Shown here: piece by piece, positions 6,174 to 33,457 of the stretch | Position numbering within the stretch: the stretch's first letter is position 1 | Layout: every line of letters starts with the position of its first letter | From: Escherichia coli | GTDB lineage: Bacteria; Pseudomonadota; Gammaproteobacteria; Enterobacterales; Enterobacteriaceae | Reading direction: 5' to 3' (one strand) | Length of the DNA: 64,000 bases | Assembly (NCBI RefSeq): GCF_036507355.1 | Contig: NZ_AP027877.1 | The notes under the pieces: generated by a model | The model's database searches: none | Told to the model about the DNA's origin: nothing | Seen by the model: the letters and a program-made list of their open reading frames with translations, nothing else | Position numbers and translations under genes: made by a program

Positions 6174-7673
6174 TTACAGGAACTGCAAGGAGAGCCAGTA
6201 AAGCCCGCCGGAAAGCAGTACCGCAGCCGGAAGGGTAAACACCCAGGCCATCAGAATGCTGGTCACGGTTTTACGCTGTAAGCCGCCACCATCTACCACC
6301 ATCGTCCCCGCGACAGAAGAGGAGAGTACGTGAGTAGTGGAAACCGGCATCCCGGTATAACTCGCCAGGCCGATAGACACTGCCGCAGTCATCTGGGCAG
6401 ACATCCCCTGAGCGTAGGTCATGCCTTTCTTACCGATTTTCTCACCGATAGTCGTTGCCACACGACGCCAGCCAATCATCGTACCGATACCTAACGCCAG
6501 CGCGACCGCCATGATGATCCACACCGGTGCATACTCGATGGTGCTAAGCATGTCGGACTTCAGTTTCTTCAACAGGCGCTGATCGTCAGCACTCACGCCA
6601 GGCATCTTCACCACTTTGTCGATAGTGTCAGAAACGCACAGCATAATGCGGCGCATCTGGCTACGTTGATCAAGCGACAGCTTGTCGTAGCTTTCCACAT
6701 CGGTAGTCAACATGCCTTTCAGGCGGTTGAGCGCGTTAATGGTATTCGACGGATGGCAATGGAACTCCGCGGGTTGCGTTGCGCCAGCTTCCGGAGCCGG
6801 TACTAATTGATCAGCACCAGTAGCTTGTTTCAGCAGCGCAGGATGCTGCTCAAAGTAAGCTTCGACGTTGTTGATGGCATCACGGGTACGGGTGATTTCG
6901 TAGCCAGTGGCATTCATGTTCACCACGAAGCCTGCTGGTGCGACACCAATCAATACCAACATAACCAGACCAATGCCTTTCTGACCATCGTTTGCGCCGT
7001 GCGAAAACGCCACGCCGATAGCGGAAAGGATCAGCGCGATACGCGTCCAGAACGGTGGCTTTTTCTTGCCGTCTTTCTTTTCACGCTCCGCTGGGGTCAG
7101 GTGGATTCGGGCGCGTTTCTTGGTGCCGCTCCAGTAGCGACGCAGCAAGAAAATCAGACCGCCAGCAAACACCAGGCCGACAATAGGGGAAACGATCAGA
7201 GAACCGAAAATACTTAATACTTTCGGGATATTGAGTGCATCCACCACTGACGTCCCGGTCATCAACGCATTGGTTAAACCAATCCCGATGATCGCGCCAA
7301 TCAGCGTATGAGAGCTGGATGCAGGTAAACCAAAGTACCAGGTACCCAGGTTCCAGATAATCGCCGCCAGCAACATAGAGAACACCATGGCAAGGCCATG
7401 AGACGATCCCATATTAAGCAGCAGATCCGTCGGCAGCATATGCACAATGGCATAGGCAACACTCAGACCACCCAGCAAAACACCCAAAAAGTTGAACACC
7501 GCTGCCATAACCACGGCGAGCTGAGAACGCATCGCGCGGGTATAGATAACGGTTGCCACGGCGTTGGCTGTGTCATGGAAACCATTGATGGCTTCGTAGA
7601 ACAGCACAAAAGCCAGTGCAAGCAATAATAACAGCCCGGTATGCAAATCCAGGCCAGCAAACAAATGTAGCAT
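6174..7673 (-). CDS. pitA: low-affinity inorganic phosphate transporter
   Basis: 499-aa PiT-family membrane ORF. Confidence 0.92.
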
Positions 7674-24480: not shown

Positions 24481-24762
24481 TTAATTTTTAAGGATCGAAA
24501 CAATTTGCGCCAGTACTTTCTCTTCGCCAATACCGGTAATAATCGGCAAGCCGTTAACTACCGGGACGTCGAGTTCATAAGGCACTTTAGTCGTTGAGAC
24601 TACCAGTGCTACGCCATCAGTATTTCCAGGTAAAGAGGCAACGTTGGTTTGGGAATAATTGACGTTAAGACCGTGCTCTTTACAATATTCCATGACTTTT
24701 TCTGTTACCGCCGTGGATGTGGCAATACCCGTGGCGCAGACAAATAAAATGGTTTGACTCAT
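24481..24762 (-). CDS. PTS EIIB component (galactitol type)
   Basis: 93-aa ORF; MSQTILFVCATGIATS with the active-site Cys. Confidence 0.8.
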   Translation of the reverse strand: MSQTILFVCATGIATSTAVTEKVMEYCKEHGLNVNYSQTNVASLPGNTDGVALVVSTTKVPYELDVPVVNGLPIITGIGEEKVLAQIVSILKN

Positions 24763-25232
24763 ATTTCACCTCGTTCTTTCATTTTGTTTAAGATTACTGT
24801 GTGTATTTCTGTTGTTTCCATCGCAAGCAGGGCTTGCATAAAGGGTGTATCCTGAATCATTTCCATAATCCAGCCCAGGGCATTTAATTGTTTATTACTT
24901 TCGCTTAAGGCGAGCAAAAAAATCACCCTGACAGGTACGGGGTCAGGATCGCCGCCCATATCGGCAAACTCTACCGGTTCCGGCAGGATGCCGACGGCAA
25001 TTGCATTGTGCCTGACATGTTTATGGTCCGTGTGCGGAATAGCGACGCACGGTGGTTCGGTAGGCAGCCCCGTTGGGTACGTCGCCTCACGTTTCAGTAC
25101 GTGATCGGCAAAATCAGGGACGACCAGCTCGGCGGCAACCAACGGTTGCGCTAACTGACGGATGATCTGTTCAACGCTTAACCCTGCCGGAAGTCGTTGA
25201 ATATAATTTTCCTGAAAATGTATGCCTTGCAT
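24759..25232 (-). CDS. PTS EIIA component (type 2, mannitol/fructose family)
   Basis: 157-aa ORF; conserved His in AIPHTD. Confidence 0.75.
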   Translation of the reverse strand: MQGIHFQENYIQRLPAGLSVEQIIRQLAQPLVAAELVVPDFADHVLKREATYPTGLPTEPPCVAIPHTDHKHVRHNAIAVGILPEPVEFADMGGDPDPVPVRVIFLLALSESNKQLNALGWIMEMIQDTPFMQALLAMETTEIHTVILNKMKERGEI

Positions 25233-25256
25233 TTTATTCCTCTTAAAAAAGTGTAC

Positions 25257-26003
25257 TTAACTCACTTCCCGCCGTTGCAGTACGGTGCCAAGATAATATT
25301 TATTTCCTTTTAACCAGACGTTGCCAAACTCAATGGGTAAACCTCGGGAGAAAAAGACTAACTGCTCCAGATGCAAAACGGGTGCGTCTTCACTGATATC
25401 TAAAAAATGACCACGTTCATTACCAATTAATCGCGCGGCATAGCGACTTTCCGAGTAACGAATTTTTCTTTGCGACAAACTTTCTATTGTTGGAAATAAA
25501 TTATGTTGATTAAAATCGATTTCCGCAATACCGGGGCATAGCTCAATATTGATACGGTTCTCTATCAGCATCGCTTTTTCATCACCAATTGAGCGTAAGC
25601 GTTCAAGGTAAAGAATATCCTGACCGGGCGTTATTCTTAATTTCTCTGCCACATAACGATTAGCCGGTTCAATCCGTGACGTAATAACTTCAGTGGTAAA
25701 ATGTATTTTCTGGCTTTCCAGCGATTCCGCGAATGACAATAATCCTTCACCTAACGGATATGCCACGTTCTCTTTTTTGACAAATGTTCCCTTACCCTGG
25801 ACCTGTATTAACACGCCTTCTTTTACCAGTTGGGCGACCGCTTTTTTAACGGTTCCCCGACTCACTTCCAGCATATCCATAATCTGGTATTCCGAAGGAA
25901 TGCGATCGTCTTCCACCAGATCTCCGGTATAAATACTTTCTCTTATCCACTCCACCACTTGTTGATAGAGCGGTATTTGTGACGACTTACTTAATGATTT
26001 CAT
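25257..26003 (-). CDS. GntR-family transcriptional regulator (HTH plus UTRA effector domain)
   Basis: ORF 25257..26012; N-terminal winged-HTH (IPSEYQIMDMLEVSRGTVKKAVAQLVKEGVL), C-terminal UTRA-like domain; directly upstream of the PTS genes on the same strand. Confidence 0.8.
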   Translation of the reverse strand: MKSLSKSSQIPLYQQVVEWIRESIYTGDLVEDDRIPSEYQIMDMLEVSRGTVKKAVAQLVKEGVLIQVQGKGTFVKKENVAYPLGEGLLSFAESLESQKIHFTTEVITSRIEPANRYVAEKLRITPGQDILYLERLRSIGDEKAMLIENRINIELCPGIAEIDFNQHNLFPTIESLSQRKIRYSESRYAARLIGNERGHFLDISEDAPVLHLEQLVFFSRGLPIEFGNVWLKGNKYYLGTVLQRREVS

Positions 26004-26026
26004 GGCGCGCACCTGAACATTTACAG

Positions 26027-26201: not shown

Positions 26202-29005
<2,804 letters not shown>

Positions 29006-29009
<4 letters not shown>

Positions 29010-29950
29010 GCGTGCGCTCCTTCATGACGACGAATGCGCGGGTCCAGCGCGGCGTTGAGCAAATCGACAATCAAATTACAGACCACAAAAACCACCACCA
29101 TCATCAGCGTAAAGCACTGGATCACCGGATAGTCACGGTTAAAAATCGCCGACACCGCATAGCGCCCGACGCCTGGCCAGGCAAAGATGTTTTCGATAAT
29201 CATCGTCCCGCCAATCAGTTCGCCAATGTGCATCCCTACGGCAGTGATCATCGGCAGCGACGCATTGCGCAGGATGTGGCGACGTTCGGTCTGTTTGTCA
29301 TTCAGGCCGCGTAGCCGCGCCCAGGTGACGTGACGCTGACCGGCGACGTCCAGCATACTGGCGCGCAGCAGCCGCGCGTTAATCGCCAGCGACATAAAGG
29401 CAATGGAAACCGCAGGCAAAATGATGTGCTGCCAGCCGCCGTAACCCATCGCGGGTAGCCATTGCAGATACACCGAAAATGCCATCACCAGTAAAAACGC
29501 CAGCCAGAAGTTAGGCATCGACACGCCAAGAAACGCGATGAAACGTACGGCGAAATCCGGCAGACGGTCGCGATGGCGCGCCGCCCAGATACCGAGCGGT
29601 ACGGAAGTGAGCAGAATTAATACCAGCGCGGCACCTGCAAGTTCCAGCGTGGCAGGCAGGAAGTTCAGCATATCGTCCAGCACCGGGCGTTGGCTGGCGA
29701 ATGAGATACCAAAGTCAAGATGCAGCGCCTTCCACAACCAGGTGCCGTACTGGACGTACAGCGGCTGATCCAGTCCCAGCATGGTGCGGGTAGAGGCCAG
29801 CATCTCCGGCGTCGGCGGCAGGTTAGACAGACGCAAATAATCGAGCGCCGGGTCGCCGGTACCGAGGCGCAGCATCAGAAAAATGATCACCGAGGCGGCG
29901 AGCACCATCGGGATCAGCAGCAGAAAGCGGCGTAATACGTAACGCAACAT
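29006..29950 (-). CDS. nikB: nickel ABC transporter permease
   Basis: 314-aa membrane ORF. Confidence 0.92.
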
Positions 29951-31524
29951 TAAGGTTTCACCGGTTTAATCTGTTCGAACGGAATTTCGGTGGCGATCGG
30001 CGCGTAGGGGATGTTACCCAGCTCCGGTTTTGATACCACCATCATTGAGATGTAACTGATAGGCAGATAAACCGCCTCGTCATGCAGACGGGTCAGAATG
30101 TCGCGATACAGCGCCTGACGTTGCGTTTCGTCATGGGTCGCCAGCACTTCGCCGATCTCTTTATCAATCAGCGGCTTGTCGGCTAATCCTTGCTGTGCCT
30201 GGAAGTCAGCGTGTGACGGTACGCGCATTGAACTGAGGAAGGCGTGTGGATCGTATGGCGCGCCCCAGGTGCGGTGGAAAATCATGCCAAAACGACCGTC
30301 GCGCTGACGAGCATAGATACTGCTCTCTTCTTCGCCAATCAGCGAGACATCTGCGCCAATCTGGCGCATATCAGCCTGAATGATTTCCGCCATCGATTTG
30401 CTTAACGCATCGGTGCCGATGAACGACAGTTCAATGCGCAGCGGCTGACCATTTTTCTCGCGGATGTCTTTGCCCGCAGGCAGCGTCCAACCGGCTTTTT
30501 CCAGCAACGCTTTCGCTTTCTGCGGATCGTACTGGCGCGGTTTCAGGCCGAGGTTGGCGTAGGGCACAGAAGGGGCAAACAGGGTGTCGGCGACCTGCTG
30601 GGTGCCATATAACGCGTTATCAATCAGCGATTTTTTGTTTACCGCGTAATTAAGAGCTTCACGTACTGCCAGCTCGTTGGTGGGGGCTTTGGCGGTATTG
30701 AGCGCCAGCATCACGGTTTCGATCGGCTGTGACAGTTGGGTGTGGTAAGCCGGATTCTGGCTAAAGCGGGCGAAGGTATCGAGCGGTAATAACCCTTCGT
30801 TTCCGTACAGCAGGTCGATATCGCCAGTTTCAAACGCTACCGCGCGGGTCGTCGGGTCCGGGATGACGTTAAAAGTGATCTTCTTAATCGCCGGCTTTTC
30901 GCCCCAGTAGTTTTCGTTACGGACGAAGACATCGTACTGATTCAGTTTCGATTCCTGCAAAACCCACGGCCCGGTGCCAATCGGCGCTTTAATCCCGTTC
31001 ATGGTTTCATGGTTTTTAAACTGCGAGGGGGCGATAAAGCGGAAAGGGCGCGGCAGGGCCAGTTCTTGCAGGAAAGGATAGTAGGCGCTTTTCAGGGTGA
31101 TCTGCAGCTCGTTTTTACTGAGTGCTTTGACATCAACAATCTGGTTTGCCAGCTCCAGCCAGGCGTGACGTTGACGGTTATCGAGCACTGCGCGGAAGTT
31201 TTCTGCCGCTGCCTCTGCATCAAACGGTTCGCCGTTGGAGAATTTCACGTCATCACGCAGGGTGAAGGTCCAGGTTTTACCATCTTCTGAATGAGTCCAG
31301 CTTTTTGCCAGCCACGGGATCACCGAACCATCAGCCTGATATTTCACCAATGGTTCATAAACCATGCTCTGGGCGAACATCTGGTTAGGCGTGTAAAGGT
31401 GCGGGTTTAGTGGCCCGACATTCACCGGCCAGGCGGTGGTGATTTCATCTGGTGCAGCGGCATGGACGATAAAAGACGCACAAGCCAGCAGCGCAAATAG
31501 AGTGCGGCGGAGTGTGGAGAGCAT
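29950..31524 (-). CDS. nikA: periplasmic nickel-binding protein
   Basis: 524-aa ORF with signal peptide, family 5 solute-binding protein. Confidence 0.93.
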
Positions 31525-31561
31525 GGTAACCCCAATGGATTAAAATAGATGGCGGAAATAA

Positions 31562-31589
31562 GTATGACGATTTTAAGTATTCGTCATAC
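31562..31589 (-). promoter_or_regulatory. NikR operator at the nikA promoter
   Basis: GTATGA, 16 nt, TCATAC dyad (GTATGACGATTTTAAGTATTCGTCATAC) about 40 nt upstream of nikA. Confidence 0.8.
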
Positions 31590-31634
31590 TGATTACCTGT
31601 TCTGGATCAATAGATGGGCAGTCGGGTGGGCGGA

Positions 31635-32222
31635 TCAGTTAACTGAATCGATCCATTGCACACTGTCGGCGGTGAGCGTAAAGGGAGTAGGGGTGCAGAT
31701 CGCCAGGCTTAAATTTTCTAGCTGACAATGGCTGACTGACAGCGAGGAGTGATAGGTGCTGTCTACGCTGACGATTTGCCAGGCGCTGCCACCACGCTGT
31801 TTAACGATGGCTTCTTTGCGCGTCCAGATGCGCCAGAACATTTCCAGTTGCTGATCAGGATGCACGGCGTCCATCTCAGCGTGTTCCCCGAGGCTGAATA
31901 CGGCGTTCGCCAGCCAGCGCCAGTTGGCGCGCGGGCGAATCACTTCGATATCGCAGCCGACTTCGCCTTCATCACTCAACAGCAGAGCGATATCGTCACC
32001 GCTATGGCTTAAGTTGAACCATAGCGGCGTTTCCGGCGCGAATGCAGGTTTGCCTTGTTCGCCATAGATGATCTCCGGTAGCGGGGAAAGCGTGTGCGAA
32101 AGTAATGCACGCCCCGCCAGCCAGCGTTGGCGTCGTGGACCTTGCGGTGCTTGCTCGCGTAAACCTGGTGGCAGTGGAGCTGCGCTTAAGGTCGAAACTT
32201 TCCCCAGAACTATCCGATACAT
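31635..32222 (-). CDS. acpT: 4'-phosphopantetheinyl transferase
   Basis: 195-aa ORF with PPTase motifs (GKP ... FNLSHSGD ... WTRKEAIVK). Confidence 0.85.
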   Translation of the reverse strand: MYRIVLGKVSTLSAAPLPPGLREQAPQGPRRQRWLAGRALLSHTLSPLPEIIYGEQGKPAFAPETPLWFNLSHSGDDIALLLSDEGEVGCDIEVIRPRANWRWLANAVFSLGEHAEMDAVHPDQQLEMFWRIWTRKEAIVKQRGGSAWQIVSVDSTYHSSLSVSHCQLENLSLAICTPTPFTLTADSVQWIDSVN

Positions 32223-32276: not shown

Positions 32277-33326
32277 TCATCCCGGTAACCGACTTTTCGG
32301 TCTGCCCGGCCCCAGTAAAATCGCCAGTTTGCTGCCGCCTTTCGTCGTTTCCATCCAGATTTTACACACGCTGGTTAATGGCACCGAAAGTAGCATCCCT
32401 ACCGGGCCGAGCAGCCATCCCCAAATTAACAATGAAAGAAATACCACCATGGTGGACATCCCCAGGCGATGGCCCATCATCCGTGGTTCTAAAATATTGC
32501 CGATGACCATATGGACCACTAAAAACAATGCGCCGACCAGAATACATTCGTAAACACCATTAAACAGCAGCACCTGAATCATTGGCGGTACGGCGGAAAT
32601 TACCGCGCCGATATTGGGCACGTAGTTGAGCAAAAACGCCAGTACTGCCCACATCAGCGCAAACTGCACCCCCATCAGCTCCAACCCCAGCCAGACGATG
32701 ACACCTGTCCATAAACTGAGTAGCGTCTTTAACGCCAGATAATGCGAAACGCCTTTAAGTGCGCGGTGTAATCCTGCGATATGAATCTGTGGATTATTCA
32801 ATGCAAAACGCATTTTGTAAGGGACGTGGCGCACTTCAAATAGCATGAAAACAACGGTCATCACCAGCAAAAGTACGCTTGCCATTGCTCCGGACAGCCC
32901 GGTCATTAGCGCCGTGGTGAAGGTAACCACTTTTTCCGAGTCCATCCGCTGCAGCATTCGCTCCGGCGACATATGCAAATTAAGAAAAGGCAACATCTCC
33001 TGCAATTTAAAAAGTTTGCGCGTCAGCTCCTTATTAAACTTCGGCAGCATAGAGATAAATTCGTTAAACGATGCCGCCAGTACGCCGACCAGCGCGGTTA
33101 GTGCGATCAGCATCACCACCACTACAATCGTAATGGCAACGGGGCGTTGTACTCCCCGACGAATAAACCAGGTGACGAGCGGGTTGAGGACGATGGCAAA
33201 AAACAGCGCCAGTAACAGCTGCACAATGATATCTGCCGCTGCGTGAATGCCCGCGAGGATCACTACCAGCGAGGCCAGCTTGAGCAGAATGTGCATGCCC
33301 GTTTTATCGGGTTGAGGGGTTTCCAT
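32277..33326 (-). CDS. yhhT: AI-2E/PerM-family membrane transporter
   Basis: ORF 32277..33407; probable start at the internal METPQPDK giving about 349 aa. Confidence 0.8.
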   Translation of the reverse strand: METPQPDKTGMHILLKLASLVVILAGIHAAADIIVQLLLALFFAIVLNPLVTWFIRRGVQRPVAITIVVVVMLIALTALVGVLAASFNEFISMLPKFNKELTRKLFKLQEMLPFLNLHMSPERMLQRMDSEKVVTFTTALMTGLSGAMASVLLLVMTVVFMLFEVRHVPYKMRFALNNPQIHIAGLHRALKGVSHYLALKTLLSLWTGVIVWLGLELMGVQFALMWAVLAFLLNYVPNIGAVISAVPPMIQVLLFNGVYECILVGALFLVVHMVIGNILEPRMMGHRLGMSTMVVFLSLLIWGWLLGPVGMLLSVPLTSVCKIWMETTKGGSKLAILLGPGRPKSRLPG

Positions 33327-33457
33327 TGGGGCTTCCTTGTGACTTTTTGTATTAAGTGTAGCGGGAGTCACGCCAGCAATATTCTGATTCTTACTGCTGA
33401 TTTTCACGTCAGCACGTGGTAAAAATGAAACACTGTTGTAAAAATGTGGTGATCCTC

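Follow-up and report, generated by a model that had tools for sequence, protein, structure and literature searches.

The GTATGA-N16-TCATAC dyad upstream of nikA in an Escherichia coli genome: a NikR operator within an FNR-dependent promoter

The gap between acpT and nikA in the stretch of Escherichia coli DNA analyzed here (64,000 nucleotides, referred to below as the window) contains an inverted repeat that is almost certainly the NikR operator of the nikABCDE-nikR operon, set within a minus-strand class II promoter that depends on FNR. This operator is already known and has been structurally characterized. An earlier note, made from the letters of the sequence, had proposed a NikR operator at nikA, and this interpretation is supported, with two corrections, by identity to the K-12 site, agreement with the published consensus, an identical NikR protein and conservation across species. 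The sequence of the site, its uniqueness, its identity to the K-12 site, the occurrence of an identical NikR and the conservation between genera of the dyad, the spacing, the −10 element and the FNR half-site were established in this analysis; Ni-dependent binding, the architecture of the tetramer, FNR occupancy and FNR dependence are taken from the literature.

Positions 31525–31634 correspond to the whole of the 110-bp acpT-nikA gap, from the acpT stop codon to the nikA ATG. Within this gap, the segment at 31562–31589 reads GTATGACGATTTTAAGTATTCGTCATAC, that is, GTATGA, 16 nt exactly, and then TCATAC. On the minus strand, GTATGA (31584–31589) is the promoter-distal half-site and TCATAC (31562–31567) the promoter-proximal half-site, and the operator lies 37 nt from the nikA ATG. 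The 16-nt spacer given in the earlier note was thus confirmed by exact counting, and a fixed-gap pattern also places 16 bp between the hexamers, as in NikR operators of the E. coli type. The repeat can also be described, at 31561–31590, as two perfect 10-bp arms, AGTATGACGA (31561–31570) and TCGTCATACT (31581–31590), separated by 10 nt, and a weaker dyad symmetry extends further, with 17-nt arms of 88% complementarity reaching 31554–31597. The exact pattern GTATGA-N16-TCATAC occurs once in the 64-kb window, for 0.01 occurrences expected, and one of 100 shuffled sequences gave a match. A search of the 64-kb window for a second NikR site, with up to two mismatches allowed, yielded just two other positions (12997 and 19851), as expected at the chance rate.

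A 156-bp alignment including the entire acpT-nikA intergenic region is 100% identical to E. coli K-12 MG1655. In the review PMC7055735, the operator of the nikABCDE promoter is given as GTATGA-N16-TCATAC, in a K-12 sequence identical to that of the window, with nanomolar binding by Ni-NikR; the same review bases this operator on the studies of Chivers and Sauer (2000, 2002) and Bloom and Zamble (2004), and Ni-dependent NikR binding and repression are described there as published for the K-12 site. Aligned with the published nik operator, a check suggested beforehand, the window agrees base for base, and this identity, together with the match to the published consensus, identifies the site as the published operator. 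A full-text literature search with the exact 28-mer operator found no paper. The K-12 nikABCDE operator was reportedly described by Chivers and Sauer in 2000, and the co-crystal of NikR with DNA is said to be the work of Schreiter and coworkers in 2006. NikR is a tetramer with two ribbon-helix-helix domains, and its complex with operator DNA is available as PDB 2HZV. The half-sites, the 16-nt spacer, the distance to nikA and the NikR protein are all alike in the window and in K-12; the site itself displays no differences, and the surrounding chromosome departs from that of K-12 only beyond nikR.

The nickel genes follow the operator on the minus strand. The first gene of the NikR-regulated operon, nikA (29950–31524), encodes the periplasmic nickel-binding protein (NCBIfam TIGR02294, 839.6 bits; RefSeq annotation). 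It is followed by nikB (29006–29950), nikC (28176–29009), nikD (27412–28176) and nikE (26609–27415), open reading frames for an ABC importer identified from the RefSeq annotation of collinear loci, and by nikR (26202–26603), encoding the nickel-responsive ribbon-helix-helix repressor (NCBIfam NF002815 and TIGR02793, both above cut-off). A cognate NikR is therefore encoded 5 kb downstream of the operator; it is identical to K-12 NikR at 133 of 133 residues and matches PDB 1q5v, 2hza, 2hzv and 3od2. The upstream neighbor, acpT (open reading frame at 31635–32222, minus strand; NCBIfam NF007676), is outside the nickel system. It had been described in the earlier note as divergent-looking with respect to nikA, and this part of the description has to be corrected: according to the open reading frames and the RefSeq annotation, the two genes are arranged in tandem, both on the minus strand. 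Two short palindromes at the end of acpT are probably trivial: a perfect TCAGTT/AACTGA across the stop codon (31635–31646) and TGAATCGAT/ATCGATCCA in the 3' end of the gene (31644–31655). The flanks of the locus are mosaic. The DNA upstream of acpT is K-12-like (yhhT-like open reading frame at 32277–33407; blastn), and genes for a GntR-family regulator and PTS IIA/IIB/IIC components are present downstream of nikR (24759–26012) in place of the K-12 rhsB. The source strain is other than K-12. Strain SCU-316, which provides the best match over the promoter, has an aryl-polyene/fatty-acid-like cluster upstream of acpT that the window does not have.

The stretch is present in 5425 of 5426 complete E. 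coli genomes, and 5198 of these 5425 reach 99% identity or more over the 110-bp intergenic region; when 801 bp with the coding flanks are considered, only 389 genomes do so. The three most divergent of the intergenic variants retrieved were aligned. Most of their substitutions lie upstream of the FNR box (31597–31610, see below), with one between the box and the dyad, and none of the three variants is altered in the hexamers, the −10 element, the FNR box or the leader. In E. coli JNE21-009, a C-to-T change is found at the seventh base of the distal arm, towards the consensus for other genera.

The operator of the window is of the enterobacterial type. The enterobacterial NikR signal is GTATGAT-N13/14-ATCATAC, a comparative-genomics consensus quoted in PMC545781, and the site resembles it in its core and in its overall length of 28 bp. 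It differs at the seventh position and at the mirrored one, which are C and G in E. coli (GTATGAC...GTCATAC) and T and G or A in most other genera. The half-site sequences of other NikR operators are unlike those of the window, being GTGTTAC-N13/14-GTAACAC in delta-proteobacteria and TATWATT-N11-AATWATA in H. pylori. Two-fold symmetry, a length of about 27–28 bp, recognition by a NikR tetramer and location at nickel-transport promoters are common to all three (PMC545781).

Conservation beyond E. coli was assessed by scanning GTDB species genomes with NikA, which gave 80 nikA loci, numbered with the prefix L, including loci from Escherichia, Citrobacter, Klebsiella, Raoultella, Enterobacter, Kosakonia and Edwardsiella, and a few from alpha-proteobacteria, Halomonas, Desulfovibrio and Firmicutes. 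In 74 of the 80 loci, a dyad with a 16-nt spacer lies no more than 300 bp upstream of nikA, with 12 of 12 specified bases matched in 52 and 11 of 12 in 22. Of 3715 control windows taken from these loci, one matched at 12 of 12 and none at 11 of 12; this lone match is the own operator of locus L007, displaced by an insertion. With spacers of 12–15 and 17–20 nt, 11 of 12 matches were reached in at most one of the 80 loci for each length. The dyad is missing from the distant loci, those of Stappia, Desulfovibrio, Paenibacillus and Domibacillus. The 74 distinct dyad-anchored sequences give the consensus aTTGATCCag.acA...ca.aaGTATGAtGAAT..tTAaAATCgTCATACtttttt, with aaGTATGAtGAAT..tTAaAATCgTCATACtt over the extended palindrome and GTATGAtGAAT..tTAaAATCgTCATAC over the operator, and no conservation farther upstream or downstream. 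TAnAAT occupies operator positions 15–20 in 69 of 75 loci. In 67 of 75, TTGAT lies at −21 to −17 relative to the dyad, and the CC after it is conserved, as is the A in the second half-site; the loci without TTGAT include the non-enterobacterial L071–L074, L077 and L079. The distance from the dyad to nikA varies between 19 and 41 nt across genera.

Several loci depart from this general picture. Ten of them (L019, L021, L022, L025, L030, L042, L052, L057, L061 and L064), from Enterobacter, Lelliottia, Pluralibacter, Kosakonia and relatives, have TCACAC in place of TCATAC as the promoter-proximal half-site and retain the distal GTATGA. This recurrent variant suggests that replacement of T by C, at the start point or close to it, is either tolerated or favored by selection. 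In Rhizobium, Fulvimarina and a proteobacterial MAG (L072–L074 and L077), nikR is divergent and lies upstream of nikA, not after nikE, and a GTATGA-N16-[TCA]CATAC dyad is found in the shared nikR-nikA intergenic region; in L071–L074, a TTGAC-like −35 element takes the place of the FNR box. The operator type is, thus, shared beyond Enterobacterales, and the activator input is not. A good NikR dyad is also present in loci in which nikR was not found in the locus DNA (L018, L020, L022, L029, L047–L049, L051, L053, L054 and L056), including Edwardsiella, Atlantibacter and some Citrobacter. For most of these loci, L022 and L049 excepted, the DNA covered continues for about 7 kb downstream of nikA, and NikR must be encoded elsewhere in these genomes.

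Insertions have occurred in the nikA leader of two Escherichia loci. In Escherichia sp. MOD1-EC7003 (L009, 6853–6980), an ERIC/IRU-type-like insertion of about 112 bp, containing ...GAATCCCCAGGCGCTTACTAAAGTAAGTGACTGAGGTG..., lies between the intact FNR box and NikR operator on one side and the Shine-Dalgarno sequence on the other, and moves the operator away from the nikA ATG, to a distance of 149 nt; its end, GAAGTATGACGAGTATA, carries GTATGACGA, a NikR-like half-site. In Escherichia sp. E1V33 (L007, 6481–7000), about 430 bp are inserted directly after the intact operator, which ends in TCATACTG at the junction. This insertion comprises 3.1 copies of an 81-bp unit (6643–6894), with G+C-rich palindromic CCCTCTCCC/GGGAGAGGG motifs, and a degenerate partial copy of the right arm of the operator (AATCGTCGCCATACTTATTTCG) adjoins nikA. 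The nikA leader of this species would measure about 470 nt.

An inverted repeat located 45 nt beyond the acpT stop codon might act mainly as an RNA hairpin, terminating or stabilizing the 3' end of the acpT transcript, rather than as a protein operator, and the minus-strand RNA from 31548 to 31600 is indeed predicted to fold well (−15.6 kcal/mol, z = −5.6). A good fold is, however, expected of any perfect palindrome, and this one would have an A/U-rich stem, a 10-nt loop and no U-run; a terminator scan of 31400–31800 found no terminator-like site, and thus no rho-independent terminator for acpT. Comparison between genera also argues against such a role, because the DNA preceding the FNR box, the neighboring gene included, changes, whereas the dyad stays next to nikA, and because GTATGA and TCATAC are nearly invariant, with no compensatory changes, indicating that the sequence of the hexamers is kept and not mere complementarity. 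A hairpin or terminator function was rejected on the loop, the stem, the U-run, the scan and the conservation of the hexamers, and is considered very improbable. It is even less credible that the dyad is a palindrome of no function that arose by chance. Twelve specified bases can come together in this way, as the single match in 100 shuffled sequences illustrates, but the dyad lies exactly at the nikA promoter, is identical to a characterized operator and is kept in 74 of 80 nikA loci, and the sole control window to score 11 of 12 or better holds the operator of L007 in its displaced position. This explanation is refuted by the conservation data, and the dyad is best read as the NikR operator, with no observation speaking against this reading.

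The region might also be regulated by NikR alone, with the FNR-like motif upstream of the dyad being fortuitous. This motif, TTGATCCAGAACAG (31597–31610, minus strand, centered at 31603.5), is composed of TTGAT, CCAG and AACAG, matches TTGAT-N4-ATCAA at eight of ten positions and is alone in the gap in resembling an FNR site. Equally good matches are common, with 48 in the window versus 33 expected, which is close to chance. The earlier note had mentioned a weak FNR-like half-match without calling it; the description as weak is fair on the letters alone, but the site left uncalled is genuine, and the note, reliable in its operator call, erred here on the side of caution. In K-12, FNR directly activates nikABCDE, with a ChIP-seq summit at 3,611,605 (U00096.2) and the best motif at −40.5, and with an FNR ChIP-chip peak at 3,611,593 (Myers et al., 2013, PMC3688515). 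The sigma-70 ChIP-seq peak at 3,611,651 is specific to anaerobic conditions (occupancy of 1897, versus 69 in aerobic conditions), and nikA expression in an fnr mutant is 0.03 times that in the wild type, a 33-fold loss (PMC3688515). The constant distance between TTGAT and the dyad, seen in 67 of 75 loci, also speaks against a fortuitous motif, and regulation by NikR alone appears most unlikely. On the published K-12 ChIP and expression data and the conservation described above, TTGATCCAGAACAG is a genuine class II FNR activator site.

The position of this site makes it possible to place the transcription start. With the motif centered at 31603.5 and the published center of −40.5, +1 would fall at about 31563, in the promoter-proximal half-site. 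The FNR peak is followed, 46 bp downstream, by the sigma-70 peak, which is self-consistent with a center at −40.5. Taking the conversion from U00096.2 to U00096.3 to be +1977, which we assume to be correct, the sigma-70 peak is located 39 nt upstream of the ATG, at window position 31563, and the FNR summit at 31609, inside the FNR box. The start of nikA on the minus strand is, thus, put at 31563, 39 nt upstream of the ATG. Relative to this start, the FNR box extends from −47 to −34 and the NikR operator from about −26 to +2, with a gap of 7 bp between the end of the box and the dyad. A −10 hexamer, TAAAAT (31570–31575, minus strand), can be read at −12 to −7, inside the operator spacer, so the operator would overlap the core promoter. 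The 5' untranslated leader of nikA would run from 31562 to 31525 on the minus strand, with a Shine-Dalgarno GGGG read at 31530–31533. A scan of 31400–31800 for the sigma-70 promoter consensus, which demands both hexamers, found nothing; this is expected of an activator-dependent promoter with no −35 element, yet it provides no positive support. An Rfam scan of 31300–31800 (E ≤ 1) found no family, and no riboswitch or small RNA therefore accounts for the nikA leader.

The nikA promoter resembles other class II FNR promoters (dmsA, narG, pflB P6 and yfiD) in having a box centered at about −41.5, a −35 element that is weak or absent, and anaerobic recruitment of sigma-70. It differs from them in its degenerate downstream half-site (AACAG against ATCAA) and in the presence of a metal-responsive repressor site directly downstream, over the −10 element and +1. 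A perfect NarL heptamer, TACTTAT (consensus TACYYMT), is also found on the minus strand at 31558–31564, from −1 to +6, overlapping the promoter-proximal NikR half-site and the proposed +1. NarL heptamers occur at chance frequency in the window (23, for 30 expected). Reading of the sequence revealed no 7-2-7 partner, the next heptamer being CCGCCAT, and the 74 distinct dyad-anchored sequences show no cross-genus conservation of TACTTAT. As nikA is among the NarL-regulated promoters without an identified site (PMC2718512), this heptamer could conceivably be the NarL site for nitrate repression of nikABCDE, a weak lead that seems rather improbable. If it were, NikR and NarL would have overlapping operator DNA.

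These elements can be combined into a model of regulation. In anaerobiosis, an FNR dimer on TTGATCCAGAACAG (−40.5) would recruit sigma-70 RNA polymerase to a promoter with a good −10 hexamer, TAAAAT, and no −35 element. Rising cytoplasmic Ni(II) would then occupy the four high-affinity, square-planar sites in the NikR tetramer, and the two ribbon-helix-helix domains would enter the two major grooves, one at GTATGA and one at TCATAC, which are separated by two turns of the helix; a second, low-affinity or K+ site makes binding stronger. The bound tetramer would span the −10 hexamer and the transcription start. The −10 hexamer lies between the half-sites and +1 under the proximal one, and Ni-NikR may therefore exclude RNA polymerase and be epistatic to FNR. 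Such occlusion of the polymerase, as the probable mechanism of repression, would override FNR activation and result in negative feedback on nickel import.

Nickel import serves mainly the anaerobic [NiFe]-hydrogenases. The strain has the standard nickel circuit, and nothing in this locus is new for nickel biology. The operator governs the import of nickel used to assemble [NiFe]-hydrogenases and serves as the structural paradigm of metal-regulated ribbon-helix-helix repressors, and the footprint conserved across genera corresponds to a composite promoter, in which an FNR box, 7 bp and a NikR dyad around the −10 element keep a fixed geometry across Enterobacterales.
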